Shown here: in pieces, positions 1-37,930 of the stretch | Layout of the letters: every line of letters starts with the position of its first letter | How positions within the stretch are numbered: position 1 is the stretch's first letter | Assembly (NCBI GenBank): GCA_043228905.1 | Contig: JBHGNT010000006.1 | Span: 20,832,001-20,896,000 of the forward strand | Length of the DNA stretch: 64,000 nucleotides | Source of the DNA: Azolla caroliniana | Lineage: Eukaryota; Plantae; Polypodiophyta | Direction: 5' to 3' | The notes under the pieces: generated by a model | What the model was told of the DNA's origin: nothing | The model's input: only the letters and a program-made list of their open reading frames with translations | Database searches by the model: none | Position numbers and translations under genes: made by a program

Positions 1-1290
1 ACTTTATGTAATTTCGGCTTGTCATCAGATTTGAGCTCATTGACCAACGCCCGCTCGACCATTTGTTGCTCAGCGTGTTGCTGAGCCATCCGAGACATGG
101 TTGCAACCTAGAGGCGAGCCAGGAAGTCTATGAGCTCGTATGTTATGCCATGCAGCAAAATGGCGCCGAGCTCGTAAGATTCCATAGGTAAGTCCTTGTA
201 GATCATAACTTCCTCCTCTAAGAATAGGGAATTCTACCCTTGCTCAATATTTCCGGTTAGGGCTAATGTTTTATCGGTGACAACCGTGACAGTTGCCTTA
301 TCCGGCACTATGACTAGCTGCTGGTCTTCAGTCAAAGAGTCCTCGGTAGTCTGTTCTTCGGTATGGGGATGGTGCCGACAGTGCTTCTTGGCGGGGTTCG
401 TCTTTAGTGTCGCGAGTACATCACGAGGCCGCTTTGTATGTGGTACCATGGACCAAATGGTATCTGCTCCGGTCTTCGGTGGGTCCACCCAATGTTCGGG
501 GCGCAAATTGGGTGAGGCCTGTGGGGAAGATACGATTGGTGCAGGGAGTTTTGGTTTTTCGCTACCCCGGATGGTGATGTTGTTTGTGGCGTCCTAGGTT
601 TATGTCTCGGGCCTCGGCCGTGGTGAGGTAAGGGTGTGGACAGGTGTGTCGTCTTCCCATTCCTCCTGAGCTAGGTGTACAATTCGTTGCTTTTTCACCT
701 GGGTGGTTGGGGCGGGGAGAGAAAAGGGTCATCGAGATGTTGTCGTGATTTGGGGAGGAGAAAGCATGGCCAAGTGATGTGTTAAGGCAACCAAGAATTG
801 TTCACCTATTTGAAAAACCAATATTGCGGTATGAATTCCTCCCCCGGTTGAGACACCCCAATCGATGGCGCCGCCTCGGTATGCCGTCGTGATGAGGCTG
901 GCCTTTTTCTTGGGCATGTTGTATGCGTTTGCATGTATACAGATGAATTCTAGGAAGAAATGGACCAGATTACCAAAAAACTCATTAGGCACCCCATGTG
1001 TGTGATAGGCTTTTCTGGACGCCGAGTACTCCCCGAAATGTTGTTCCAAGATATGCTAAGGTGGAGCCTCTATTTTATGTTCTCCCCCTCGTTGTAGTCC
1101 CAACACTGATCGGATCTGGTTGTTGGTGATGGTGTCGGGATGCACCCTTCGTGCTACTCCATGTGCCTCCGGGTGGGGAGTAGTGTCGAGTACGTGGAGA
1201 TAACCTCCAAAACCATGTTTGGTTAACCAAGCACGAAGCTCCTTGGATACTTCGAACGGTGTCGTGAGGATTTTCGGCTATGGTGAGAAA
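1..1290 (-). pseudogene. Extra sense-strand ORF downstream of gypsy pol (degraded accessory protein)
   Basis: Coding-like fragments such as 729-1049 (HFGEYS...KKKASLITTAYRGGAIDWG) and a Pro/charged region at 234-506, lying ~1.1 kb 3' of integrase on the same strand. Confidence 0.5.
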
Positions 1291-4200
1291 ACCCAAGCAG
1301 GATGAATAAAATGGGGATGTGCAACATTGCACATGCACTTAATAGAATTGTAAAATAGAGTAACAAATGTAAAAGGAAGGGTAGAATGTAAGGTGCTAAA
1401 AGTGCACTACAACATTTGTGAAGTATAAAGGTGATGTGTACTTAGGGGCTCATGCACATGTAGACTAAAGGGGAGTGCATGGAACTACAGTGTAATAAGT
1501 AGAGGGTGTGGTTGGTTGTTAGGAGAGGGAGTTAAGGCTCCCTCAATCTCTCCTCCTAAGATCAAGAAAAATATTCCCCATTGAAGGAAGGGGATATTTG
1601 GCCTCTCTTTTTGTAATGTGACTCACCCCTTATTACTATAAAGGGAGTGAGGGGTCACTTGGGAAGGGGTCGCCATTTTGTTGATTTGGGGTAGACCATT
1701 AGGGTATATATTTCTCATCCCTATTTCGTTTAGGGTTTCGGTTTAGGATTTTGTTTTAGGATTTTCTTCTTCTTCTTCTTCTTCCTCTATCGGGGTTTAG
1801 GGTTTCGTCTAGTGGTGCTTATGTTCGGCCTACACGACCACGGTTGTAATTGGTGTGGTGCTTTCCATAATGTAATTGTTTGATGTATCTTGTCTTGTTT
1901 AGATCTTATTCTCTCTTACCTTAATCTCTCGAATCTTAATCTTTCTCTTCCTTCTCAGTTGAACTCCCAATATTCTCTCCCTTGTCCTACTCCCTAGTCC
2001 AAGACCCCCATGATCCTGCCCCTTTTCGACACATACTCGCAGATTTCCGCGACAACTACATGGTTGTTCCAGAAGAAAGAAAAGAAGAGTGGTGATGGAA
2101 GTAAGGAGACAGAGAGTGACAGAGAGCTTCTCTGCAGGGGGTTTGGGAGCGAGAGGGTGTCTGAGCAGCTTGAATACTTTGAGTCTTTCTGCAAAAGTGA
2201 GGGTTGCGCATGTTGTGGCTCCCTTTTTGTATGTGCCTTGGTTCACGAGACGTGGCCTTGTGCACTAGATTCAGAATCTGCCCTGCCATACAGGGTGTTA
2301 AGGACCACGCGTCCTAGGAACCGTTTGTATTTTCTTTTTCTCGTGTGGCGTGCATGCTCTTTAAATAGTTAATGGGTCTTCTTTTTTTCATGACTATAGT
2401 ATACAATTTCGGGTAGTAGGTAGGGGAATTACCGTGATTGCGGCAAGGTTCCCCCGGAATCTTCTGTTCTACCTACCACGGGCTGGTCCCGACCGTGTTG
2501 TTTATCGACGAAGGGATTGGTGGGCATTGAGCCTAGGTATGGCTTTAGTCGAAATCCGTTAACCCAAGTTTGCAAGACTTCCCCTGCGAAAGTGCCGAGC
2601 TGGAAAGTTTCGTTGAATTCATCAATAATCCAAAAGGGTCCTGTCCACTGGAAATGAAGTTTCTCCATCCTCGAATTGAGCTGAGTTTGGAGTTTGAGGA
2701 CTGGTTTCCCGATCTCGAATGATTTTTTGGATCCTCGCCGATGTCAATCCACAAAAGTTTTCCTTTGTCGCTGCCCATTCTCCAATTGTGCAATATTGGT
2801 AATAGGAGCTTCCTTGAGCTCGAGTAATTGTTCGAGCCGTTTTTGCTCAGACTCGGACTCAGAAAGTCAATCGGTTACTTGAACATGTAAACTCAGCACT
2901 TGAAACTCGATGGGCATAACTGCTTCCAACCCGAAAGCCATTCGAAAGGGAGTAGATCAGATACTTGTTTTGAACATTGTACGATATGCCCATAGTGCAC
3001 AATGCAGTTTATCATCTCAATCGGTTTGATTCTTGTTCAAAATTTTCTTGAGGATGTTTTGTAAGGTCTTGTTCCTTGACTCGACCAACCCGTTTGCTTG
3101 AGGGTCGTGGGGTGTGCTTTTCTTATGTACGACCACATAATGGGTGTTAAGATTGCGAACCAAACGGTTGAGAAAGTGACCTCCTTGGTTGCTTACGAGC
3201 TCGATTGGGCAGCCAAATCGACACCATAGAAATTCATACATGAATGTGGCGGCGCCTTTGCTTTGACCCATTTCGTGCCGTAGTCGGTAGCCATGATTAT
3301 ATACTTATTGCCAGTTCGGGCCGCGACTGGTTTCAATGGACTGACGAAATTCAATCCCCACTTCTGGAAATGTTCTAATGGAAGGACTGGTTGGTGAGGC
3401 ATACATGCTTGTTCGGTGGGTTGGCCCATTCGCTGAAGAGGTTGCATTGTTTGCAGAATTCGTGAGCATGCTTCGTTGTTGTGGGCCACCACAACCCACT
3501 TTGCCAAAATTTCCGAGCCGTGGCATCGCCAACATAGTGACCGCCGGCTATCCCGTGATGTGCCTCCCGTAGGATTGCATTCTTTTTTAATTGGCATACC
3601 GCATGACGCCAGATGCCATCCGAGCCTTTGTGGTACAAGGTGTGTGTGACAAGGCAAAAACTCCGACTGCGAACTGCCAACCGTTTCTTGGCATCTAGGG
3701 TCAAATCTTCAGGTGGGAGGCCGGTGGTGAGGAAGTGTGTCATCTCGTTTATCCAGTCGTCCTCGTTGTCGGCTGATGGTGTGGCTGCGTCTAACCCGAA
3801 GAGGTTGGCGTCGGGTAATTCATCGTATTCCGTTGTGGTTGGCTCCACTGATTCGAGCCGACTCAAGTAATCCACGACAACATGCTATACCCCTGGTCGA
3901 TGTTGGATGTCAAATTCGAATTCTTGGAGAAGCAACATCCATTAGGCCATTCGACTGGTTAGTGCCTGCTTATTGACGAGATAGCACAACGTCACGTGAT
4001 CTACGTGGAATGTAAACTTTCGGCCGCGCAAATAGTGCCAAAATTTTCAGCTGTCGAAAGTTGATGGCTAGCATAGTAGATTGGGCAATACTAATTCGGA
4101 GGCGCCTTTTGCATGAGGGCACTCCCAATAGCCACGTCCGATGCGTCGACGAAAACGTGGAAGGGTTGCGACCAATCCGGTAGTTGCACCACTAGTGCGT

Positions 4201-6692
4201 CTGAGAGCATTACATTAAGGGAGCGATATGCATCGTCTTCTGTTGCCGTCCAACAAAATGAAACCTAGTGTACAGCCCCGTGTAACGGTGTCACGAACTC
4301 AGCCAGGTAACGTAATTATGATATGTCACCTAATCTAACCTAAAGACCGGCTGAGTTCTTTTGTTGTGGTTGGGGTCGGAGCATTCAGGATGGCATGCAC
4401 TTTGTCAGGATCCATTGTTATTCTGTCGTGCCTGACAATATGGCCAAGTAAGGCTCCGTTGGACACGTAAAAAGCACACTTGGTTGGGTTAGGCTTAGCC
4501 ATGCTTGCCAGCATCGCTCTAGACAAAGGCATAAGTACCCGAGGTGCTCGTTCTTCTGGCCGTACACAGAAAAGTCATCAAGAAAGACTTGCATAAAGGC
4601 CAAAATGTAATCATCAAAAATTTCGGCAATAATTCGTTGGAAAGTGGCCAGACCTGTCTTTAAGCCGAACGTCATCGTGGCTCCTATAAACACGCCCCAT
4701 TCAGTGATAAATGTTGTTTTTGTTTGATCGTCAAGATGCATTCAAAGTTTATTATAGTTGTTGAATCCGTCTAAAAAGCTACAGCATTCATGGCTAGCCA
4801 CCGCGTTGAGGACGCCATCTGTTAGAGGAAGAGGAAAGCCATCCGTAATAGTTGCGGTAGTCGACGCAAAATTGGATTTTCCCGTTCTTTTTCGGAACTA
4901 CGACGATAGGGCTCAACCATGTTGCCCGTTTTACCGGCCATATGAACCCTACCCAGAGGAGTTGTCGATTTGCTCCTTTACTTTGGCCGCATAATTAGGA
5001 TTCATCTAGTAGCGGCGCTGCTACACAAGTCGTGCATCGCGCTAGAGGTGAATCTAGTGCTATGTGTATTGCGGATCGAGCCCCTTCATGTCACTGTACG
5101 ACCAGGCAAACACATCTTGGTAATCAGTTAGTAGCCCAACCAGGGCTGATCGTTCCTCTGAAGCCAATTCATTCGCGAATTTAAGAGTGCGTGGCTTGGT
5201 GGGGGAACCGATACTAATTTCCTCAAGTGTGGACGCCTTGACTCTCTAAGAGACAACCAATTCGCAATCAAGCACGTCGCGGGCATGTCGTAATTCTTCG
5301 ATGGCCTGTAGGTCCAGTTCGTGCGGATCCTCGTTCTCCTCCGGGGCAAACTTAGATACATATGGTTCGACAACCGTAAGAACATCGATTTCAAATAGAG
5401 AAACGATCATGGGGTGTTCCTCGAGGCAGTGGTCCATTTCATTGTCTGTGAGGCCGTCAAACATGTGAACTCATTCGGCATATAACAGGTTGGTATCAGA
5501 AGCTGTCGCGATCCATTCCTTCGTGGTGATACGGATATTGGTTTTGCCGCAGCAGAAGGAGATCATATTCCGTTGCCAGTGTTGCTTAATGTTGGTCGTG
5601 CGCAACCATGGACGACCAAGCAACGTTGGGTATGCCCCGGGAGCATCCAGGCGTAATACCACCGCTGAGATGGTGAAATCGTGGCCTCCGAGGATGAAGT
5701 CCACATGGCGGATTAACTAGGCCATTGGTCGAACGGAACAGGTATCCGCCATTTGGAGCCAAAACGGACATGGTTCCCATTGGGTGATACCGAGGTTGTG
5801 ACATGTAGCCTCACTAATGACATTAACACCCAAACCACCATCAATAATGCAACCGTGAACATCGCGACCTTTGATGACGAGTTTTACCACGAGGTTCTAG
5901 GGTCCATTAATGTTGAACCAATGCTTGGCTTTGCCAGATGGACCGGCAAGTTGGTTGACGCTTTGCCGATGGTGAGAGAGGCCACTGTGTCCTTGAATCG
6001 GGGAAGCAATTGTAGTAGTTTATGTAAGGGCATTGAGATTTGGCAGCTTGTGAGAGGTTGCCACACAAGGTCATCGTCATGTGCCTCGGTAGGTTGAGAG
6101 GAAGCCAAGGGACCGATAGTGATATCGTTCTCGGTCTGCATTCTCTCGGTATTCGCTTGATTAACCATGTCAACCCATTTTCTGGCGGTCTGTTGGACTT
6201 TGTCCTAAATTTCCCACTATGTTTTATTGGCTTTGCTTCGGGTCGTGACCTGTTGAGCATCTGCCATAATGATGTTTACGGCAAGTGGTTTACCTGGATC
6301 GTTGGTTGGGCACTGAGTGGCGTAATGCCTTGGTTGGTTACAGTTAAAGCACGTTATTGGTGTCGAGTGGCTAGATTCCCCTTGCTCAAATTGGGATATT
6401 TGATTTTGTGGGGGATCATCTTCTCGGGCCAACGAGGCGTAGGTTTGGGCATGAGGAGCGTTTTCCTGAGACTCGGGCAGGGGGTGTCGTCGATTATCGG
6501 TACGTGGAGGGTCTCAGCGATGGTTTTCGAAGGGTTGTCGATTATTGCCCAAGGGTCGAGGACCGCGATTATAATATGAAGGTCGTCGTTCGTGCCATGG
6601 ATACCTAGGTTCATAGTAGTCCTCTCGGTCGTAATCATAACAGTAATAGTCGTCGTCCAGACGATCGCGGGGTAAAAGCATGCGAGCGGAAA
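1..6692 (-). mobile_element. Degraded non-chromovirus Ty3/gypsy retrotransposon (Athila/Tat-like); 5' end truncated, 3' end outside the window
   Basis: Minus-strand fragments in gypsy order: gag CCHC-like (CFNCNQPRHYATQC, ~6330), protease (LLGRPWL, ~5610), RT (FLDDFSVYG, ~4575), RNase H (FHVFVDASD, ~4150), integrase ([23 protein letters not shown]...VNGFRLKPY, 2429-3875). Many stops and frameshifts. Confidence 0.85.
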
Positions 6693-6959
6693 CACTATTA
6701 TAGCTAATTAGCTACTAAAATGGCCACAACTAATTAGCTATTTGTTTAGGTAGTTTTTTGTGGGAAAATCATAAGGATGGTTTACGAAATTTTATGTTTT
6801 ATTAGTTAAATACATGTCATTTAATTTATGAGAATACTCAAATTTTTTAACTTTGGTTTCTGACGTAGTGGAACATGGGGAATAGTGCCATTATCTAAGG
6901 TCGACTTGAATGTCATCAAATTCCTGATAATCCTGAGTTCGAGTTCGAACTCCAAACAG

Positions 6960-9550
6960 ATGGAGTACTTTGAGCATGAATGCAGACGAAGCTCCCGCAG
7001 CAGCACAAAAACTCTGAGATCGACATTGCACCTTTAGAGCTACAACACACGACCAAGTCGATCCTCGTCCAGGTATGTATTAGTTACATATTAAAAAAAC
7101 TTGTTTTTTTCTTTTCTGATAACTATCTGTAACTTTGGTGCATGTTCATCTTTCCCAAAAATCGAATAGGGCGAAGTCATTGGAGTCCCAAACAAGGATG
7201 TCTCGAAGATCGGGGTGTAGCAGCAGGTGTGTTTCTTATTGACAAAATTTGGTAGTACGGTTGATTTCTGCCTTTAGTGATGATTAGGGTTTTTGTTTCC
7301 CTTAAGTGGTTTAGGGTTTCAGATTACAAATTTTAGATTACAAGTTTTTGGTTACAAATTTCGTATTACTGTCGCAATGTGTTGTAATTTTGCACCAATT
7401 CTCATGACAAATTCTGATTAGAGTTTCCGATTTTTTAAGTGGTTGATTTCTGATACATGTTGAAAAGGACGAATTACAAATTTTAGATTACTGTCTCAAA
7501 ATGTTGTAATTTTGCACCAAATTCACATTAAAAATTCTGTTTTTGCACCAATTCTGATTACTGATTTTCTATTTCAGGTGACTCAATCCTCCCTATCCTA
7601 GAGTGTTGAACTTCGCAAAATTTTGTGAGTCAAAGGAGGACTTCCACACCATATATGGTCTGTTGCTCGAGGATATTGACCCTGTTGTTCTAACAGATAG
7701 ATTGATTAGTGATGTAGATTGGATGTCAATATATAAAGTGCCTAGAGTGAAAGGCAAGGTCAAGCTCAAGCATGTACGACCGGACTTGTACAACGACTAC
7801 ATGAGACTACACCAGAAAGTACATCAAGAGATCCTGGTCAACAACGAGTTGTCCGTTTCATTTGCCAGAGCTTTTGCATGTGAGTATTGCAAAACAACGA
7901 AGGAATCTCATGACCCTAAAATCTACAAGTTAGCTTGGGCAATTTATGGTGAGGCATCGATAGAAAGATGTCGGAAGATGGGGAGCTTGCAACAAAAAAT
8001 GGCAAGATTTTGGAGCATGGCAGTTGATGATGCAACTGCCGACTCCCAACGAACCCGCAAGTATACGCGACACGAACACACGATGAAAGCCAATGTCGAT
8101 GATACAGGTGAGACATTGATCAACATGAGCTTGAAATTGAGGGGTCGTTGGATCCCCAACGGAAAATTCAATTGCAAACAGAGATCCAAGTTCTCTCAAT
8201 GAACCTGGATCTTCTAGGTGTCGCAGATTACAATTTGGACAAGCTACAAGTAAGTTAATGATTCTTGTTTCTTGTTGTTGTATCTTCCGCATTAAGGAAT
8301 AATTAATCGGTAAATTTCTCGGCTGCATTGAAGGAACAATACCCCTGTCAAGAACAGGTAGTTAGCACTACATTTTGCGGAGGGGGTCGTAAGGAGCAGA
8401 CAAGAATTTGACCTGAACATTCTTGCTCGCTTACCAAATGAAGGAGAACCAGGAAACGATATATTGACTGTTCAAGCATGTTGCATCGCTATAGAGGAAA
8501 AATCTGCAACTCTGTTGGTTCACCTACAACCATACCAACACACATACCATATCGTTTGTTTTCAATATGCTTGTCGCATTGCTGCATTCTGTTTGGGGGA
8601 TTGTAGTACAGCTCTCCCAGATGAGTGGAGAAAACCAACAGGTAAAATTGTTGCTTATGACCATAGTGTAGCTAATTAGTTCCATCTTTGTTAATTGGGT
8701 AAGCCGTATAAAGTGTGGAAACTATTTAGCTGTTATGGTTGTAGTGTAGTAGCTAATTAGCTCCTACCATACTTTAGCTTAGTAGCTAATTAGCTATGTG
8801 GTAGCCAATTAGCTCCTACCATAGTTTAGTACAATAGCTAATTAGCTAAGTGGTAGCTAATTAGCTACTACCATAGTTTAATACAATATCTAATTAGCTA
8901 CTACCATAGTTTAGTACAATAGCTAACTAGCAACCAGTTAGCTAATGAGCTACTACCATACTTTAGTTGATTAGCTAATTAGCTAAGTGGTAGCTAATTA
9001 GCTACTACCATAGTTTAGTACAATAGCTATTTAGCTAAGTGGTAGCTAATTAGCTACTACCATAGTTTAGTACAATAACTAATTAGCTAAGTGGTAGCTA
9101 AGTAGCTACTACCATAGTTTAGTACAGTAGCTAATTAGCTAAGTGGTAGCTAAGTAGCTACTACCATAGTTAAGTTATAGTGGCTAATTATCTACTACCA
9201 TATTTTGGTTGAGTACCTAATTAGCTAAGATGTAGCTAATTAGCGACCATGTTGTTGTAGAATCTTGTGGATTAAGGACGGCGCATGAGGTGTCTGGTGC
9301 TGATGACGCTGCAACTGATGAGGAGATAGTTGCCAACGTGGCTGAAAGTAAGAGTGATGCAATCACATCTCCTTTAGATCAGTTCCACCCTATTCTTTTG
9401 GAAGATGGTGTTGAATTAGGCAACGATGTGAAAAGCCATGAAATATTGGAAACAACATGTAAATCTAAGGTTCACAACAATAGTGTTTTTGAACACTTGA
9501 TGCAACATTTCTTCGAATCCCAAAACCTTGATTCCACCCCACTGAGGCCA
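6960..9550 (+). pseudogene. Degraded multi-exon gene with a RING-like Cys/His region, probably transposon-associated
   Basis: Phase-compatible GT-AG exons: 6960-7072, 7170-7226, 7578-~8200, ~8400-8641 and 9261-~9550. Degenerate RING-like pattern C.CC...LQP(Y)QHTYHIVC...C...C at 8470-8610. In-frame stops present. Confidence 0.55.
8668..9245. repeat. Tandem array (~52-bp period) built on the palindrome TAGCTAATTAGCTA
   Basis: Unit starts at 8991, 9043 and 9095 (52-bp spacing). The same palindrome also occurs at 6701-6740. Confidence 0.9.
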
Positions 9551-22590: not shown

Positions 22591-24559
22591 CCGCGTTGTA
22601 CGCGAAAGGACAAAAGGTCGAATTGGATATCGACCTCTAGCACAAGCAGTTCAGCCACATAAATTTCACACAGCTTCGTGAAATGCAGACGAAGAACATT
22701 GTATTTGGATTGCCGAACATTCGGGGCCATAATGCCCAAGTCTGCGAAGCTTGTCAGATGGGAAAACAGCACCGACTTCCATTCCCCAATGAGCGTAATC
22801 GTAGTCAATGTCCACTGGATTTGATCCATTCGGATGTGTGGGGTCCAGCATAGAATGTGGGTCTCAGTGGAAGCCGTTACTTTGTAACCTTCATCGATAA
22901 CTTCACTCGGCACACGTGGGCATGCATGATTGAGAGGAAGAGCGAAGTCTTCGCATGTTTCCTGAAGGTGAAGAGCCTTGCGGAAAGGGAAACGGGGCGT
23001 AAGATCAAATGCCTACGGTCCGATGGCGGGAAGGGGTACTTCTCCGACCAGTTCACATGTTATCTATGGAAGGAGGGAATTCGACGCGAATTCTCATGTA
23101 GATACACGCCGCAGCAGAACGGCGTGGCCGAGCAGAAGAATCGGAGGATTGAAGAAGCGGCCAGGGCAATGCTTGAAGAGAAACATATGCCGAAATTCTA
23201 TTGGGCTAAAGCCGTGAAGACGGCTATCTACCTGCAGGATCAGACTTTTGCTAATGGAGGAGTGTCGCCACATGAGTTGTATTTCGGAAAGAAGTCGAAC
23301 TTGGCACACTTGAGGATTTTCGGCAGCATTACGTACGTGCACGTGCCGAAGGAGAAAAGGAGGAAGCTGGATGCCAAGGCCGAGAAATGTATCTTGGTCA
23401 GCTATTTAGATGAGCAAAAAGGGTATAAATGGTATATAACCCTCGAACAAAGGAAGTACGTGTAAGCCGCGACGTCGTGTTCGACGAGTCTACTTCGTGG
23501 TACTTGCCTTCTCCTCCAATACCTCACGACTCCATTCCGATTTCTAAAGACGAAGTTAGCGAGGCTGAGATGCCTCCGTATGATGAGGATATCGAAGTTC
23601 TGAGAGAGAGTCTGATCTCATTCCGATTGAGTGGGCCTAATGATGGGTTGGGCCGTGATGGCCAACCAGATGACGAAACGGCGAGCAGTGGAGACTCAGC
23701 CGTGATGTCCCCGCGTAAAGAACCGAGGAGACGGTTTACGCGTAAAGAGAAAGGCAAGAAGAAAATGTCGGAATACGACTTCAGTAGTGCAGAGTCAGAT
23801 CGGAGCAAGTCTAACTACGAGCAAACTAGAAAGGAACCTCCACGCAAGAGGTCGACAGTAGCCGAAAAGGTTGCGAAATCGGGTAATCACGAATTATGCC
23901 GATCTACCCACCTGAAGAACCCCGTAAAGAAATACGGGTATAATGAATACATGGCGCACCATTATGCGTATATGACGCGAGTGGCGGAAGTGCGTCGGCC
24001 GGAGAGCTACGCAGAAGCGGCAAGAGACGCAAATTAGCGTGCCGCGATGGAGGAAGAGATGTGCGCCTTAACGTAGAACGAGACATGGGACCTGGTTGAC
24101 ACACCGAAGGGTGTGAAGCCGATCGGATGTCGATGGGTGTATAAAGTGAAATACAATACCAACGGCTCCGTCAATCGATACAAGGCCCGCTTAGTAGCGA
24201 AAGGCTACGCGCAACAACACAGCATCGATTACGATGAGACCTTCACGCCTGTCGCGAAGATGACCACCGTCCGTGTTCTGCTAGCCGTAGTTGCGGCAAA
24301 GGGGTGGCACTTACATCAAATGGATGTAAAGAACGCGTTCCTGCAAGGCCCGGGGGCTTGACTGTCAAAACTTGTATGGTAGCACGTGAGTTCATCAAGA
24401 GGGGTTTAAATTAATCAATGAGATACAGAATATATATATATATATAAGGGTATTAATAAGGATTTGAAAATATATTTACATAAGGGTATTATCAATTATG
24501 CTAGAAAAAAAAATTACATAAGCCCGTGAAATATTTGATATTTCAATGAGATAGTAAAG

Positions 24560-27119
24560 AATGTATTATGTAAACAATACTCAAATTTGGAGTAGCATAT
24601 ATACATACATAAATACATACACATGCATGCATCCATATATACCTACATTCAAACATTACATCCATGAATATGTATATACGTACATTACACCCATTTATAC
24701 ATGCATATTGACTAAACATAAATATATGTACAAATATATATGACCATATGTAAATATGTACATACACGTACATACATGCATTACATACTACATACATCTT
24801 AGAATCGGCCATATATATTGACATACATATATACATAATACATACATAAAAATTACATATTATATATATATATATATACACGTTTTTACAATTTACAAAG
24901 ATATTTTATATATTACATATTACACACATATATTATTATACGCACAATTTTATGCAAATGCAAATATACAAACCAAACAGAAAAAAATAAATTACATATT
25001 ATATATATACATTCCATACATACAATACAATACAATATGTACATACATACACACACAAACATAACACACATCACATATGAATACCACATACATGCATATA
25101 TACCTACATTCATATATCACAACACATCACACATGCATATATACCTACATTCAAACATTACATCCATGAATATGTATATACATATATTACACCCATTTAT
25201 ACGTGCATATTGACTAAACATAAATATATGTACAAATATATATTACCATATGTAAATATGTACATACACATACATACATGCATTACATACTACATACATA
25301 TTAGAATCAACCATATATATTGAAAGAAAGAAAGAAATATATATTAACGTCTTCTAAGACCAAATTTGACCCATGAGACAATTGGTTTACAACAAAATTG
25401 GGGTATTTACCCATTCATTGAAAGTAAAAACATACATATGTATTATGTATATATGTATGTATTGACATACATATATACATAATACATGCAATAAAATTAC
25501 ATATTACATATATACATACACAAATGCATATATACATACAAAACACAAAAATTAAATTACATATTATATATTATATATGTACACATCACATACATATTAA
25601 TACCTAAGATTACATATTATATGTATACAAATCTTAATATTTACAATTTACAAACAAGTTACATATATTACATATATGTATATTATGTATATACACGTGC
25701 ACACACACATAAATAATTTAGATATTACATAGCATATAATCCATACCTATTACACAATATACAAATTTACACATACATAAATTACATATATACATACATA
25801 TATTCCACATATGTACATACATATTCCACATATCACCATATATATAGATTATATTGGACCATACAAACCACAATACTTACATACACACACAAACACACTA
25901 GATATATGTATATTTACACATACATTGGATATATACATGCATATTACAAACATACATCCATATATGAGCCATATACATACTAAACATGAAAATATCCCAA
26001 AAATATACATACATAAATACATTACATATATACACATTCATACATTTACATACATATGACCACATACACACATACACATACATACATTGGATATATACAT
26101 ACATATTATACACATATTACAAACACATTCATACTCATTGAATGATGTATATTGATATATACATATATGCATACACATACATATATTACATATGTACATA
26201 CATGTTCCACATATCACCATATATATATGTACATATGCCTGCAATGTTATAAGTTTTACAAATAGACATCCATACACATAAATACATTACATACACATGG
26301 ATACATACATTACATATGTACATATATATCATCACCAACTACAATAAATACATATATACATACACATAAATAAATATTACNNNNNNNNNNNNNNNNNNNN
26401 NNNNNNNNNNNNNNNNNNNNNNNNNNNNNNNNNNNNNNNNNNNNNNNNNNNNNNNNNNNNNNNNNNNNNNNNNNNNNNNNACATAAAACATTTACAGGTA
26501 TGTAAAAGAAATACACACACGGACACAACACATACATACATATGCACATATATAGAATATATACTCCCACACCCATACATATATACACATGCAATGCAAT
26601 ACATACATATGCACATATATAGAACACACACACAACACATTCATACAAACACATGCAATATAATACATACATATGCACATGTATAGAACATATACTCACT
26701 CACTCACTCACACACACACACACACATATACATATATACACATGCAATACAATACATACATATGCACATATATATAACACACACAAACAACACATACATA
26801 CACACATGCAATACAATACATACATATGCACATGTATAGAACATATACTCTCTCTCTCACACACACACACATAACACATACACATATACATATACACACA
26901 TTCAATACAATACATACATACACACATTCCATACATACAATACATACATATGCACGTATATATAACACACACAAACAACACATACATACACACACATGCA
27001 ATACAATACATGCATATGCACATGTATAGAGCATATACTCACACACACATCTAACACATACATACATGCATACACACATTCCATACATACAATACAATAC
27101 AATACATACATATGCACAT

Positions 27120-27160
<41 letters not shown>

Positions 27161-27520
27161 CTAACACATACATACATGCATACACACATTCCATACATAC
27201 AATATAATACATACATATGCACATGTATATAACATTCACACACACATTCCATACATACAATACAATACATACGTATGCACATGTATAGAACATTCACACA
27301 CACATTCCATACATACACTACAATACATACATATGCACATGTATAGAACATTCACAAACACACACACATTACATACATACAACACATGCATTACAATACA
27401 ATATGTAAATACATACACATGCAATTCAATGAATACAATACAATATGTACACACATACATACATAACATGGAATACAATACAATACATACATATGCGTGT
27501 GCGCACACACACACACACAC
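24560..27520. repeat. Long degenerate AC/AT low-complexity tract with internal duplications
   Basis: ATACACATAC-type sequence; ~185-bp duplication at ~24635-24820 and ~25137-25320. The ORFs here are compositional artefacts. Confidence 0.9.
26381..26480. other. Assembly gap (100 N)
   Basis: Run of 100 n; true length unknown. Confidence 0.99.
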
Positions 27521-27524
27521 ATGT

Positions 27525-28130
27525 GTGCTTGCAAATGTTGATTGCAAGGTTAAAATATGTGATTTCGGATTGACAAGAGTTGTATTTCATGACAGCCCAA
27601 CGACTATATTCTAGACAGTATAGTAATCTATTTAAATATGCACATTTCATGTTCTTAACACACAGTTTGCAATCTTTAGGTGCCGAGAGATAATTAACTT
27701 ATTATTTTGCAAAGAAGGTACACTCTCATTGAACTTGTTTCATCTTTGATGAATATGAAAGTAGAGGTTGTGCTCGTATTTATTCTAGTTTGAGTCCAAG
27801 AAGAGATTGCTAAAAGTTTTACTAGTTTTTGTGAAGGCCTTAGTAAATCATTACTTCAAGGGCTTAGCTAAGGTAACCCATCAGTAAGTTGGAGTTTGAA
27901 TTCGAGAGGAGAAGAGTTTCAAAAAAGGATGTAAGGGAACTCATATATCGAGAGGTAATATAAACTTTGGTTTAGTGTATAATTTCATAATTATAATGGT
28001 ATTGATTGAGCCTTCTCTAATTTTTATGAAGATTCTTTTTTTATTGCCATTATTAGATCCTCGAGTATCATCTACGTATGCTCAAGGATTGTTTGAGTGG
28101 AGGGGATAGGCCCAACTTTTTGTATCCCAG
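27525..28130 (+). pseudogene. Intron-containing fragments of a plant group-D (TDY-type) MAP kinase
   Basis: 27525-27617 VLANVDCKVKICDFGLTRVVFHDSPTTIF*T|GT; ~27834-27954 ALVNHYFKGLAKV / PISKLEFEFERRRVSKKDVRELIYRE|GT; 28057-28130 AG|ILEYHLRMLKDCLSGGDRPNFLYP-S|GT. These match recalled MPK8/9/16-type motifs and exon borders. Confidence 0.9.
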
Positions 28131-29143
28131 GTTTCTATTGAATGATTTAAAATGGTTAGTTGTCATTGGTGGCCAACCATGTTTATTTGCTTGCTTGTTT
28201 GATGGTGGTAGAAACAATTCCGCTAGAGAGAAAACATACATCTTTGTCCAGGTTGTTCTTAAATATGTAAATTTGTTTTTTTATTACTGATCATGAATCC
28301 TCATAGTTGTGGATCTATTTATTCATGATTATTTACCATAAATGTTCATAGTTTTGGATATGCACACATATGGTTGATGTATTGATAGTATACGATGGTT
28401 CTCATATGGTCTTGTAGTAACACTAAAGTTGAGAAATTGAAGCATTATTTTTCCAAGGATGCCTTAGATATGATATATCATCTATAGAAACCATATAAGA
28501 GTTATATGAGGCCCATTGGTGTAGGTACATACTTGTGTCCCACGTTATGAACATTAATAACTTGACTTATTCTCAAATAGGTTCTGAATTTTACAGCAGG
28601 AAATTTGAAACCCCCAAAAATTTAGAAAAGAATATATTTTGGATAAAATTTAGAATTTTTTTTGAATGTAAGTCATTGATATTTGAAATACATAAGCTAA
28701 GATTGGATTGTTTTGTCATAAAGAAAGTATAAGAGCTTTGTTTGGACCCAATTATATAGAAGTCCTATATCAATGATCCTTAATAACTATTCTTGTATTT
28801 TTTATGATGATTCTGTTTATGAGTTACTGATTTTGATAGAAATGCAACTTTTGTTTTTCCTCATGCCTTACATGAACTACTCAGAAGGAAACAAGTAACC
28901 AAGAGAGCAACAAGCACCATCCTCCCTAAAAGGTCATATTATTGAGATTTAGAAAGAAAGTATGAAACAAACCAAGGATGTGGAGAGGGCGTAGAGTGAT
29001 GTCATGGCTATAATACATGTCCAACATTGAAGATAGAAACTACATGAAATTTATAACCTAAAATAAGCTTCTTTGGATTTTCTATTTATATAGTTGGTCT
29101 TTATGAAGATAACCTTTATTGTAATAAGTATTTTAAGTAGACA

Positions 29144-31690
29144 TTGGGGCAACGGGGCCCATCAATGCCATTATGCAAGTCTGTCCGGCAGGGGTGCCCA
29201 TTGGCCTCCTATCTTTATTTATTTATTTCAGAGGCATTCTCTTTCTTTCTAAATAGATCGGATACAGGAATTCGGGGTTTGGTTGTCCCACATGCTTGCA
29301 AGGACTTGTTGGACTCTATGTATGCAGATGACACTATGCTTTATTTGCAAGGCAATGATGCTAATTTACAGCAGGCTGAAAAACGGATTGAGTTGTTTTG
29401 TGAAGCATCAGGGGGGAAAATTAATTGGAACAAAAGTAGAGGGTTTTGGGTAAGTCCAAACTCCAAGCCGCATTGGCAACCTAATGATGATTTTCAATGG
29501 GTTCCTAATGGAAGGGCTGTTAAGTATTTGGGCTTTTTGGTGGGAGTAGAGATTTAGAAAAATCAGCAGCTTGAGCAAGTGAAAGACAAAATTAGAAAAA
29601 AGCTTTGGTTATGGACATCAGTAAAGCTTTCCCTTGCAGGTAGAGTGGTTGTGGTAAACCACATTTTGTTGGCCACCATGTGGCACTCGTTGGCATGTTG
29701 GATGTTAGATAAAGATTGCATCAAAAATATCAAGGCAATGGTGAGAGGGTTCCTTTGGTCGGGTAGAGACCATGAGACAACGTCAACTAAAGTGGCCTGG
29801 AGTTGTTTGATCAAGGAAAAAAGTCAAGGTGGACTTGGCTGGTGGATCCGGTTCACCAAAGTAAGGCTTTACTTGGTAAGCTCTTGGTGCGAAGTCTCCA
29901 ACCTGGACCAGAATTGTGGAAATTGCTTCTTAGAGACAGAGCTAAACTCTGGTGTCCGAGGAATGGCGGCCCTTGGACGACAAAGACGTGGTGGTTGTTT
30001 AGTTCAGGCCTAACGTTAAAAGAACCTACTAGCATGGAGGATAGGGTGGCCCGCTCCATAATGAGGGCATGGTCAAGTTTAAGAGAGGGGCTTGTCTTAA
30101 TGCAGCCAAAAACAATGGAGGAACAACTCCGTCAACCTCTATTTTGGAACCCCAGGATTCGAAGTGATGACGGTATGATGCTTGGTTAGAAAAAACACTT
30201 GCCATGGGGAAAAATGGTCGAGTACAATGTTAGTTCAGTAAGAGACTGGGAGGAGTTCAAAAGGAGAAGAAGGGAGGGACTGGTTGCTAGCCCTAGATTT
30301 ACTGGCAGGCTGGAAAAGATTACCCATTTGATAGATAAGGCTGTTGATGGTCTAGCTAGACTGAATGAAGAAGAGGGGGTCTGGTTTGGGTGGTTTGTGG
30401 GTGAGGACGATGCACAAATTATCCGAGGCAGGTGCCCATCTAATGAGTATCGATGGTGGGGCAACCTAAGTGCTTTGGCAGACAATGGCCAGTGGTTGGC
30501 AGTACAAGTGGCAATGCTGGAAGGTAAGAAATGGCAAGTAAACCCGGACCCAGGGAAGCTGCAATCTGATTGTAAGCTTTGGATAGTTGACAACAAGCCC
30601 GTATGTGATATGGATTGGGATCCACTAGAGGTGTGGTGGCAGAAACCGGGAACGGACAAACTTGAACGGTTTTTCGAGTACACTACCAAGCTAGGAAGGC
30701 AAATCATTGGATCTAAATCGATGGGTGTTGCCCTAACTTGCAATAGCTGGAAGGATAAAGGCATTTCTGATGGCTGGTTGAAGTCGTTTTGGAGGAGGCT
30801 ATGGGCATTCGATATGCCAGAAAAAATAAAGCTTTGGTTGTGGCTTCTTAGTCACAAAGTTGTACCAGTGGGGGAGTGGCTTAGGTGTCGTGGTGGTGAG
30901 GCTGGATGCAAAATTTGTGGTCACCCTTTGGAATCAATTCCTCATTGTTTTTGGAATTGTAACGAGGCTATTAACATTTGGGGTAGAAGTCTCCAGATAG
31001 TGGCAGCATGCGGCGTGAATGGGAGAGTTGTATGGGGGTCCGTACAGGGGCTGAAGTTAACAGGGGAAGGTTGGGCTGAACAGTTAAACCCTCACGGACA
31101 TGGATTTATAGTGCAGGGTGGCAAGGTGTTTCAACGGGCTGGAGTTCGACCTGGCACTAACTCATAACTTTTTGAAGAGATATGGAGGATGGTGGCTTGT
31201 TTATCGGTCTGGCACATTTGGACCAACCGTTGTAAGTTTGTTTTTCAACAACAAAAGATCCCTAGTGGTGAGGTATTAATAAATATCTGGTTTGAGTTGG
31301 TCTCTTGGCTGTGGGGACGATACAACTCGATTAAGGGGGAATCTGATGCAGCTGAAAGATCTCGATCAAAGTTCTTGCTGAAATGGGGTAATTCTCCTAT
31401 GGTCGGCAGATCATCATCAGGGCCTCAATGGCACTACCAAGCACCCCGATGGCTGTTTCCCCCAATAGTTTCCAACAGTGTCTAGGTGCTATAAATTTGT
31501 ATAGTTATGGTACAAATAACTAGGTTATTGGAGTTGTTTGGATACATTTGTTGAAAATGAGGTGGGGACTATGTCCGCTTTGGTGAGAGGGCCAGAGTGA
31601 GGGCCGTTGAGAGGAATTTTGAGAGTTCTATGATGTAATTTTGTTTGCTAACTAATGCGAAGCGGTATTTTTTTGGGAAAAAAAAAACAA
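29144..31690 (+). mobile_element. 5'-truncated L1/Tx1-type LINE (RT plus zf-RVT), degraded
   Basis: SVRQGCPL, MYADDT, KYLG, LSLAGRVVVVN, KIKLWLW...CKICGHPLESIPHCFWNC; A-rich tail at 31678-31693. No TSD found. Confidence 0.92.
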
Positions 31691-34538
31691 AATGATTATC
31701 TCATTTTTATAGTGTGATGTCTTACATTTCAAATGGAAATATAACATATGTTGTCATTTGTTTGATCAATGTATTTGGGAAAAAATAATGTAGTGGCTTC
31801 TTATGAGTTTATCCATTAAACCAAACATAATGATAATTTGTTAGTAATTTCATTATTGATATGCATTTGGATTGTCCCATGTGTGCTCTTTGAGATATGC
31901 ATGTCAAGTTCAAGATTGGTTTTTTTGTAAATTACATTATTTTTTATCACTTCATATTCTTCATATGTTTAAATAAACTATTGACATGAACTTATATGTG
32001 GCTTATATATGATATACCTCTAATGTTTTTGGGTAATGTTTTTGAATTGTTTGTGCATTACTATATACTTTACACATTTTGTTTTCAATTTATGTGGTAC
32101 TTGATGAAGCATTTCTACAAAATTGCATATGTTGTTTAATGTTCTTTTACAAATTTGTGAGTCATCAACTATAAAGAGGGTCATAGATCCATTCTAGGTT
32201 TCTTGGATTAGAAACTATGTGTGCATGTATATTTTCTATGTAAGGGCATTAAAAATAGGTGGTTATCAAAAAATATATTGGTAATAGGGGGTATTTTTAT
32301 TAATCTTTTTTTTACAAAAGGGCCTCTAAAATAGTAAAAAACATATATATAAGGGGTTTATAAATGATGTCATGAACGCACGTGATACAACCTTCTTATA
32401 TATAGTGGAGTCCCCGAGCTACAAGGTGATCTTGAGGAACAAGTGTACATGATACAGCCCCCCGGATTTCTATCCAAACGAAACACCTCGGCGGTTTGCC
32501 GACTGAAGAAGTCATTGTACGGACTTAAGCAAGCCCCGCGAGCCTAGAACGTGAAGATTACGCAACAGCTGCGTAGGATGGGCTTTACAACGTCGAAATT
32601 AGACTCTTCGGTATTTGTTCGGAAAGGTCAACACGGACCGATTAGTCTCCTATTATATGTTGATAATTTAGTCATTGCCGGTGCTGACCTGGACAAAATC
32701 CACAGCGTGAAGTCTCAGCTTGCGGCATCGTTTGAAATGAAGGATCTCGGAGACCTTCATTACTTCCTCGGGATCGAAGTGATCCGTACCCCCGAAGGCA
32801 TATTGATCAGCCATCGTCATTACGCGTTGTCTTCAAGTTCAGGATGGCAAACAATAAGCCCATCTCGACCCCTCTGGATAGAAACGTGAAGCTTCGCCTA
32901 GATTCAGGCAAGGTGTGCGACCCAACACGGTTCTGACAAATTGTTGGGAGCCTTATCTATTTGACGATTCCTTGGCCGGATCTTAGTTATCTAATCGGCC
33001 TAATCAGTCAATTCATGTCGCAACCTACGGATATTGCGTTATGTCAGTGGCACGAAAGACATGGCGTTGCTATATCGAGCAAGCGTAGCCTTACAGTTAG
33101 TCGGCTACACGGATGCCGATTGGGTTGGAAACGCCAATGATCGTCGATTCACATCCGGATACACCTTCTCGTTAGGAAGTGCGGCGATCACGTGGAGCAG
33201 CAAGAAGCAGCCGACAGTAGCACTGTCAAGCACGGAGGCCGAATATCGAGGGGCAACTATCGCTACATGCGAAGTAATTTAGTTGAAACGGCTATTACGG
33301 GATCTGCAGGTAGAGATGTCTAATCCGACGACGATTCATTGTGACAACCTTAATAGTATCCACCTTGCAAAAAACCCCGTTTTCTACGCCCGGACCAAGC
33401 ACATTTAGGTGCCTTACCATTTTGTCCGCGAGCGGGTCCTTTCAGGAGAAGTTGAATTGGTGCATGTTTCAACTAATCGGCAGCTTGCCGACATCTTCAC
33501 AAAACCTCTTGGTCTCGACAAGTTACGACATTTCTCGGGTGCGCTTGGGTTGCGTCACCTCAACACGCCGAACTTGAGGTGGAGAGAGGAAGATCAGGGA
33601 CCAGAGCATGAAAGGAGTGGAGATAAGCATCACGGCGGAAGTGACTGAGATGCGGAGTCGAATGCAGAATTTGACTTCGAACCGGCTAAAGAAACCGAAG
33701 ACGGAAGCAAGGACTGTAAGCATAAGAAGAAGCCGAGGACAACCGAATCAGGGGGAGATAAGGCCAAGCCGAAGACGTGGTCAGAAGTTGTCAAAGGCCT
33801 AAAGACAGGAGACGAATTGGAGACAGCCAATTCGGATGAGAGCGGCATGGAATCGGAAGCATTCGATTCAATCAGAACATTCGATTCTGATACGTCGGAT
33901 CAACTTAAGGCCATGCAGAGAAAACGGCAGCGAAGGACATGCCGACACCACGACAGCAAGGGAGCTGAGATGGGCCGAACAAGCAGACAAGCCGACCGGA
34001 AGGGTCGAAGCGCGTAGAATTGAACAAGTCGAGGAGCACGAGCGAGTCATGAAGCCAGAAGGAACCGGAGCATAGATTTGAAAGAACAGACGGAACCTCA
34101 AGTTGAGCTTGAGGGGGACTGTTGAGAAACAAGCTCAACATTCGGTGCGTAATCGGGTGTGTAACCCAGTGCGTAAACTGGCTGCGTAAAAACCGTGCGC
34201 ACAATAGGCCGTAGCGGTGCGTAAACCGCGAGGCCATTAGAAAGATATTCCTCGAAGGAATAATTTTGGGAGTGAGTGTAGCGGCTCATTTATGAGCATC
34301 AAGTACTGTCAGTACTTGTGTCAACCCAATTGTCAGGGTTTGTATATAAGGTGCTCACTGAGCACGAAGTATGTACAGATTGAGTATTATTTTGAATTTA
34401 GTTTCAGTGTCTACTCTCTGTCTTTGTCTCTCCCTCTCCCTCTCCATCTCTGCGTCTTCTGTGTTTTACCAAACTGTCTTATTCCTTCGAACTGTGTACT
34501 CTGTGTTTCGCATAAGCTTCCGCACAACGTTGTCGCAT

Positions 34539-37534: not shown

Positions 37535-37930
37535 GTCCGGTAGCCGGTTCCATTTTGCTTGCCGGCCGGTTCCAATTTGCTTGCCGGTTCTGGTTCTGGT
37601 TTTGCTTGCCGGCCTGTTCCAGTTTTGCCTGACGGCCGGTTCCGGTTTTGCTTGCCGGCCGGTTCCGGTTTTGCTTACCAGCCGGTTTTCGGTTTGCTTG
37701 CCAGTTCCGATTCCGGTTTTGCTTACCGGCCGGTTTGCATACCCGTTCCGGTTCCGGTTTTGCTTGCCGGCCGGTTCCGATTTTGCATACCGGCCGGTTT
37801 CCGGATTGCATACCGGCCAGTTTCCGGATTTGCTTACCAGCCCGTTTCCGAATTTGCTTACCGGACCCGTTTTCCGGATTTGCTTACTGGACCTGTTTTC
37901 CGGATTTGCTTACTGACCGGTTTCCGGTTT
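37535..37930. repeat. Tandem CCGG-rich ~20-27-bp repeats inside LTR B
   Basis: Repeated CCGGTTCCGGTTTTGCTTG / CCGGATTTGCTTAC units. Confidence 0.85.

Follow-up and report, generated by a model that had tools for sequence, protein, structure and literature searches.

The window analysed here, a stretch of 64,000 nucleotides of Azolla caroliniana (assembly GCA_043228905.1, contig JBHGNT010000006.1, positions 20,832,001 to 20,896,000 of the forward strand), contains a DNA transposon (24349-32418) inserted within the reverse transcriptase (RT) gene of a copia retrotransposon. An earlier note on this DNA had described an 8-kb AT-rich block, which splits the RT exactly and is flanked by the 8-bp duplication CT(G/A)CAAGG. 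The two halves of the RT match abutting parts of an uninterrupted copia in the same window (57638-58030 and 57322-57646; RVT_2 domain match, E 2.6e-33), which confirmed the exact split. The duplication is present as written: the two copies of the target site duplication (TSD) agree at 7 of 8 nt. The insert is not AT-rich throughout, as 2.5 kb of it is a nested long interspersed nuclear element (LINE) with a GC content of 42-47%, which is not cargo. AAGGG motifs were found near both ends, as the note had it; in this family both ends carry them on the same strand.

Over its 5′ 3.1 kb and in its 3′ arm the window copy matches sister copies that bear a transposase gene, but not over the transposase region itself. 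Tblastn with the transposase sequence P0002 gave no match in the window copy, in line with the earlier failure to see a transposase there. In place of the transposase region lies a segment (27524-29012) that matches a TDY-type mitogen-activated protein kinase (MAPK) gene (Pkinase domain), with introns kept. The source locus is at ~3.69 Mb of G000:C4. The two captured pieces, 90% and 83% identical to the source, are joined at 27709 across a 1.57-kb deletion. With terminal inverted repeats (TIRs) and a TSD, no transposase and a copy of host-gene DNA from elsewhere, the window copy has the features of a Pack-TYPE element.

The LINE is a secondary insertion: its site was empty in 7/7 siblings, and the empty joint was found in three DNA runs. 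It has no clear TSD, and its right end (~31681) is approximate. An assembly gap of 100 N (26381-26480) lies inside low-complexity DNA of the element, and at such a place two different elements could have been joined by the assembly. The agreement of the TSDs at 7 of 8 nt, the continuation of the copia across the insertion and the same order of parts in gap-free siblings speak against such a chimera, and so do the five MAPK-carrying siblings checked for this: in all five the sequence between cargo and left end has no gap. We find the chimera scarcely credible. The parts of the element are listed in Table 1.

Table 1. Parts of the window copy and of the surrounding copia retrotransposon, in window positions
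Feature	Position	Strand	Evidence or remark
Host copia long terminal repeat (LTR) retrotransposon left of the insertion: from integrase into RT; degenerate; left boundary approximate	22854..24348	+	
Left 8-bp TSD, CTGCAAGG	24341..24348	.	sequence, paired-copy comparison
Left TIR, outer 17-nt block, CCCGGGG-N4-CACT core	24349..24365	+	192 exact genome matches vs 0 for the control
Left 14-nt spacer, non-complementary to the right end, conserved among copies	24366..24379	+	paired copies
Left TIR, inner 18-nt block with CACGTG	24380..24397	+	paired copies; relatives from other organisms have a similar block at nt 36-38
Element-derived 5′ region: low-complexity DNA rich in TA/CA, preceded by subterminal AAGGG (24446, 24482)	24398..27523	+	TA/CA-rich DNA common to transposase-bearing copies; includes the assembly gap
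Captured TDY-type MAPK fragment, exons and introns, now broken	27524..29012	+	
Element-derived 3′ region, part 1	29009..29146	+	in sister copies the matching DNA lies downstream of the transposase gene
5′-truncated LINE, secondary insertion (RVT_1, zf-RVT, A-rich tail)	29147..31681	+	absent from siblings
Element-derived 3′ region, part 2, subterminal AAGGG motifs	31682..32369	+	
Right TIR, inner block with CACGTG	32370..32387	-	paired copies
Right 14-nt spacer	32388..32401	-	paired copies
Right TIR, outer 17-nt block	32402..32418	-	paired copies
Right 8-bp TSD, CTACAAGG, one mismatch to the left TSD	32419..32426	.	sequence
Host copia LTR retrotransposon after the insertion: remaining RT and RNase H, degenerate, right boundary approximate	32427..33648	+	

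Searches of the 523-Mb genome with the termini returned 241 and 258 candidates, and 40 of each list were scored. The 17-nt outer block had 192 exact matches in the genome and its reversed control none. The termini are thus multi-copy, contrary to one objection that the earlier note had raised against itself, and the copy number in one plant genome is about 100 or more. We paired the ends of 41 copies, a non-random sample drawn from the best BLAST hits, the transposase hits and the exact 17-mer hits. The 8-bp TSD was perfect in 27/41 pairs and had at most one mismatch in 34/41; two of these 34 copies share one TSD and represent a segmental duplicate. TSDs of 9, 10 or 11 bp fitted none of the 41 pairs; the earlier note had named TSDs of 9-10 bp with continuous TIRs as the mark of an ordinary MULE. 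A 9-bp reading was rejected on the same count, and the base following the right TSD was C in only 9 of 34 copies. No sequence preference was seen among 21 TSD sites.

Complementarity between the left and right ends of the 41 pairs was 0.82 at nt 1-17, 0.24 at nt 18-31 and 0.80 at nt 32-49. It stops at nt 49, and there are no long TIRs. Each end thus has two complementary blocks, of 17 nt and 18 nt, on either side of a spacer of 14 nt that is not complementary. The bipartite design proposed from the single copy was upheld, with a spacer of 14 nt instead of the 13 nt first read. The spacer had been taken as unconserved; it is indeed non-complementary from end to end, but it is conserved among copies (0.99 left, 0.91 right), and therefore it is specific to each end, not unconstrained. 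The outer block is complementary at 16/17 positions in two transposase-bearing copies. The copies are 3.7-22 kb long, the differences being mostly owing to nested retroelements.

Some copies deserve separate mention. Two copies in inverted orientation, 15 kb from each other and 98-99% identical (G000:C3:1184526-1190606 and 1205708-1211756; L078, L079, L007, L019, L050, L051), have reciprocally swapped 8-bp TSDs, which mark either an inversion of the intervening DNA by ectopic recombination or a flipped assembly. A perfect 7-bp TSD replaces the 8-bp one at L322-L323 (C8:17.04-17.06 Mb). The right end of L068-L069 (C2:17.12-17.13 Mb) lacks its last bases and is followed directly by the left-flank 8-mer, possibly through imprecise end processing. 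The segmental duplicate (L318-L319 and L329-L330; C5:12.97 and 12.99 Mb) carries in each copy a nested hAT-like element that has, by eye, a ribosomal protein S7-like reading frame. At L072:~6150-7450 (C4:7.25 Mb) a diverged left-end-like sequence, in which the outer block is not intact, begins ~0.7 kb downstream of a complete copy. Within or beside copies there are also long open reading frames (ORFs) of another transposase-like type (L087:4185-8039 and L086:7850-8584), one of 619 aa without a Pfam match and one of 278 aa with a weak helix-turn-helix (HTH).

The earlier note had suggested looking for a copy that encodes a transposase. Starting from transposase ORF fragments in two copies, we reached about 20 strong loci, with 36 rows of hits for the core, and 12 paired sister copies with the same ends were found to hold the gene, on the sense strand of the element; 11 of these 12 have an 8-bp TSD. 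A complete frame is present in three near-identical metagenome contigs, which may be collapsed repeats. Seven copies (C4:12.8, C4:12.9, C5:12.97, C5:12.99, C7:4.7, C7:21.5 and C9:5.5 Mb) have kept exactly residues 386-625 (P0002 numbering); they are one deletion derivative, later amplified.

There are 76 close homologues of the transposase, those with species names coming from Adiantum, Riccia and Calypogeia (ferns and liverworts), and 2005 homologue representatives at E<=1e-3. Searches of Pfam and of Protein Data Bank (PDB) sequences with a single protein or with profile A2 gave no match, and a search with the distant profile A3 returned its own first member only. An AlphaFold2 (AF2) model computed from 122 sequences had a mean confidence score (pLDDT) of 87.7. 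Foldseek placed P transposase first, with E 6e-10 against 1e-4 for RAG1. Superposition on the Drosophila P transposase structure 6P5A gave Z 22.0 and a root-mean-square deviation of 4.3 over 405 aligned residues. The alignment pairs model residues 79-572 with chain residues 137-566 and covers the HTH, the RNase H domain as well as the insertion domain. Of the other structural matches Transib came next (Z 10.1); ISCth4 had Z 8.5 and Hermes Z 7.4. In the ESM Atlas the P/THAP9 Pfam families appeared in 8 of the 9 rows listed (best 0.95); the top match (0.96) was an unnamed, mostly Basidiomycota cluster.

The P transposase has the acidic pattern D230/D303/E531 with D528 and a D(2)H motif (PMC7776569; PMC3698922, in the part available). 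Over the 122 sequences (P0001 numbering) D180 was conserved in 98%, D300 in 97%, E537 in 100%, D347 in 97% and H350 in 100%, and the motifs D534xxE537 and D347xxH350 were conserved in 90-100%. The model places the triad in strand 175-183, at the end of strand 294-299 and in helix 534-543; members of the P superfamily carry theirs on beta1, beta4 and a helix downstream of these. On these grounds the transposase is predicted to have a P-type RNase H fold with a helical insertion domain and the catalytic triad D180/D300/E537.

Outside this core the protein carries at its N-terminus, by eye, two C2H2-type fingers of the form CxxC…H-x5-H. No THAP domain was found in P0002, in the long homologues or in the upstream exon. 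The C-terminal ~100 residues (P0001 762-866) are predicted to form an SH3-like barrel. Structure searches with the barrel put BAH first, tied with Tudor, chromo and MazF at Z 7.0-7.5 (best Foldseek E 0.034), and the ESM Atlas held no usable match for this domain. One homologue has a C-terminal Tudor domain and another a SAP domain (P0057, P0141). A role of the predicted barrel as a chromatin reader is a lead only. An insertion preference for retroelements, an idea taken from the barrel, was not seen: 28/45 flanks and 21/40 random stretches matched the local library of retroelement proteins (p 0.39), and GC was equal.

We consider it very probable that the window element is a non-autonomous member of a high-copy family, in which the MAPK fragment replaces the transposase gene, and that the family's transposase, predicted to be P-element-like, likely mobilised it in trans, by cut-and-paste. 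The family is a divergent P-like lineage that produces natural Pack elements in a plant. It is called P-like, not canonical P, because it lacks the THAP domain and has other termini. Canonical P elements end in CA…TG. Plants and fungi are said to have no THAP, so its absence here limits only the assignment to canonical P. The gene-capturing, non-autonomous TIR element with split ends and an 8-bp TSD described by the earlier note stands, none of the conditions it had named for a refutation came about, and its candidates hAT, MULE and Zisupton give way to the P-like transposase of the sister copies, as judged by predicted structure.

Several observations weigh against this assignment. Of the transposase-bearing genome copies, 26 were examined and all lack a complete open frame. 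No Pfam family was found for P0001 (E<=1) or P0002 (E<=0.05); PF12017 was matched by only 4/43 members, with a best E of 5.5e-5. The close-relative profile A2 misses P transposase, profile A3 reaches 6P5A only at E 0.027, and the structure-aligned identity is 14%. The termini are CCCGGGG here and CA in canonical P, and animal P members have THAP (C2CH) where this family has two C2H2-type fingers. Seven of the 41 pairs are without a simple 8-bp TSD (two swapped, one of 7 bp, one with a truncated end, three unexplained). The microhomologies at the cargo junctions are only 2-4 nt long and could be due to chance.

The same observations could be read as the mark of a separate, unnamed superfamily that shares the fold of P but has its own end chemistry, with neither GTP cofactor nor 17-nt overhang. 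No Pfam P model was matched at cut-off, the profile E to P exceeds the value of 0.005 set by the Repbase rule of superfamily convergence (PMC4455052, in the part available), the termini, the DNA-binding module and the C-terminus differ, the D1-D2 spacing is 120 against 73 in P, and the 2005 representatives form a large coherent family. Against that stand a Z of 22 over HTH, RNase H and insertion domain, which far exceeds the value for any other transposase, the agreement with P in TSD length, D(2)H, DxxE and terminal 3′ G, and the P/THAP9 neighbours in the Atlas, so that we hold a separate superfamily to be distinctly unlikely.

A further alternative is an ordinary Pack-hAT, Pack-MULE or KDZ derivative, in which the P-like gene is an unrelated passenger. 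TSDs of 8 bp are typical of hAT (PMC8903248, in the part available), and hAT-like ORFs occur inside a few copies (L077, C5:12.97/12.99). These pieces are, however, sporadic inserts. In 12 paired copies the P-like gene has a constant position and orientation, its 3′ flank is common with the window copy, and an element of another organism (L198, described below) has this gene between ends of the same kind. MULEs mostly have 9-11-bp TSDs, and such TSDs are absent here. The individual superfamilies were rejected as well: hAT for lack of a BED or hATC Pfam match (E<=1 for P0001, E<=0.05 for P0002) and for a Hermes Z of 7.4 against 22 for P; MULE because 0/41 pairs fit 9-11 bp, complementarity ends at nt 49 and there is no Pfam match; and Zisupton/KDZ because no Pfam match was found in the family transposase or in 25 homologues. 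The passenger explanation is very improbable.

The P-like reading suggests a sequence of events, every step of which is conditional. The family transposase would mobilise the window element in trans by cut-and-paste. Its N-terminal zinc fingers may bind to the inner block with CACGTG or to the subterminal AAGGG motifs, and its catalytic core may process the outer 17 nt, the same length as the staggered cut of P. A single entry of the cargo, through template switching in the course of gap repair, would have been followed by multiplication of the new element, and the LINE would have landed later, in the window copy only. Gap-repair template switching is the route given for induced capture by P and for the animal Pack-TIRs (PMC8277862, in the part available).

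The MAPK cargo was found in at least 14 loci (40 of 65 candidates scored), 87-97% identical to the window copy, so that one capture probably preceded the amplification; the identity to the source is 83-90%. The cargo could also have arisen, in the same element, when two insertions close to each other were re-mobilised along with the DNA between them, as in the Pack-CACTA model. This route has been proposed for plant Pack-TYPE elements generally (PMC8903248, in the part available), and local pairs of copies do exist (C3 1.18/1.20 Mb). It fits less well than gap repair, since the cargo replaces the transposase region between the 5′ and 3′ element arms, no internal TIR remnants were seen, and no element end was found in the 30 kb examined around the source gene. 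We think re-mobilisation unlikely.

Capture was not confined to the MAPK gene. A second cargo subfamily (L091:3344-6187, L093, L097 and C8:17.04-17.06 Mb) consists, with Pfam E 1e-15 for its fragments, of an intronless TIC20 with upstream DNA, fused to an intron-bearing fragment of S-adenosylmethionine (SAM) synthetase, and further subfamilies were seen at L316 (C8:4.69 Mb), L324-L325 (C9:14.2 Mb), L311 and L314. A fragment resembling, by eye, a glycine-rich RNA-binding protein lies beside sequence common with the TIC20/SAM-synthetase cargo. The large inserts of other copies are mostly nested LTR, LINE or hAT-like elements and not cargo.

Hints of splicing came from run X20, the RNA label of which is a guess. 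The MAPK intron is spliced in this run, and so is an 80-nt GT-AG intron of the transposase gene. The same 745-nt contig shows a 3157-nt skip, with GTGAGT as its donor and a T-rich AG acceptor, by which the catalytic core is removed. A second skip has the acceptor in common with it, so that there are two splice-like joints (L133:1241-4399 and 1243-5397) across the whole core; each core-skipping joint is from one contig of this single run, with 27-29 nt on the short side. As read from the sequence, the core-skipped product would keep the N-terminal domain and both fingers, and it is a candidate repressor. In three raw RNA runs labelled as another organism 0, 0 and 6 reads matched, too few for a statement on expression.

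Relatives of the family occur in other organisms. We inspected 80 metagenome loci for termini; most contigs were too short or had no termini. L198 is a complete 6.1-kb element from another organism with a stop-free ORF, 41% identical. Its ends are of the form CTCGGGG…CACT with a GTGAGA block at nt 38, its 8-bp TSD is perfect, and its spacer is more complementary than that of the window family. L200 has both ends and no TSD, and L199, L202, L222, L226 and L248 have one similar end each. In the relatives from other organisms a block similar to the inner block lies at nt 36-38. The end design shared by L198 and the other relatives is therefore a trait of the lineage. Because both blocks are kept at nearly the same spacing, the earlier suggestion of separate cleavage and binding blocks gains some weight. 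No second divergent P-like family was found in the 523-Mb genome, where one weak 48% match was seen. Elsewhere in the window two tandem arrays (8698-9247 and 37547-37874) with units of 52 nt and 23 nt are unrelated to the element.

Two surveys of plant TIR superfamilies, as far as their available text goes, list seven (PMC10741241) and six (PMC9033089) without P, and the term 'P element' does not occur in the available text of PMC13317346. Titles and the first lines of abstracts contained no description of P-like elements in land plants; Repbase and Dfam lie outside this scope, and so do the repeat tables of fern and bryophyte genome papers, which may list an automatic 'P' class. With no Pfam signature, the family would be missed or mislabelled by standard annotation. 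Natural gene capture is here extended to a P-like group. For P the family is a natural point of comparison on two questions: whether the use of GTP and the overhang of 17 nt are ancestral, and by what means ends are recognised where THAP is lacking; the stop-free relative L198 makes these questions directly testable. A bolder picture, possible though doubtful in our view, is that of an undescribed, widespread THAP-less sister lineage of P, perhaps of superfamily rank and recently active in seed-free land plants, with CCCGGGG ends resembling recombination signal sequences, 'Pack-P' exon shuffling, a chromatin-reader-like barrel and a spliced zinc-finger-only repressor paralleling the splice control of P.

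Among known systems hAT (Hermes, Ac), MULE (ISCth4/IS256) and Zisupton/KDZ are alike in having an RNase H fold with an insertion domain, and hAT and Zisupton also in the 8-bp TSD; the family described here differs in giving no match to their Pfam domains and in having neither long TIRs nor 9-11-bp TSDs. RAG1/Transib gave the next-best fold matches (Z 8-10), much weaker than P. The bipartite ends are reminiscent of the heptamer-spacer-nonamer signals of that group, which has a 5-bp TSD against 8 bp here, and no RAG2-like partner was seen in our family.

The likeness is closest to the P superfamily (P, Galileo, 1360 and THAP9). It includes the predicted fold, with an HTH, a split RNase H domain and a helical insertion domain (Z 22), the DDE triad, D(2)H, DxxE, the 8-bp TSD and the 3′-terminal G, as well as a terminal block with a candidate binding site further inside, numerous copies with internal deletions and possibly a short spliced isoform. 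Inversions between copies, reported for Galileo and BuT5 in the sources as far as available, resemble the C3 pair. P differs in having a perfect 31-bp TIR and 9/21-bp offsets, where this family has a TIR of 49 nt that is split, the spacing being equal at the two ends. About 47 extra residues lie between D1 and D2 here. The C-terminal SH3-like barrel (predicted), the ~1,400-aa protein of the full-length relatives and the land-plant host are further differences. P uses a GTP cofactor and makes a 17-nt staggered cut; here D534xxE537, parallel to D528xxE531, the 3′ G and the 17-nt outer block may hint at the same. P entries exist from green algae and fungi, and THAP-less relatives of P outside animals are classed as 'P-Fungi' in RepeatMasker/Dfam; the top match in the Atlas, the mostly Basidiomycota cluster, may be akin to these.

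With the Pack-TYPE elements (Pack-MULE, -CACTA, -hAT, -PIF, -Mariner and the animal Pack-TIRs) the window element shares the state of a non-autonomous, multi-copy TIR element with a TSD, and a cargo of intron-containing, sometimes chimeric fragments of host genes. In the available part of PMC8903248 the plant Pack-TYPE elements named are from MULE, CACTA, hAT, PIF and Mariner only. Capture by the Drosophila P element is described in the available part of PMC8277862 as anecdotal and artificially induced, whereas the capture seen here is natural and multi-copy.

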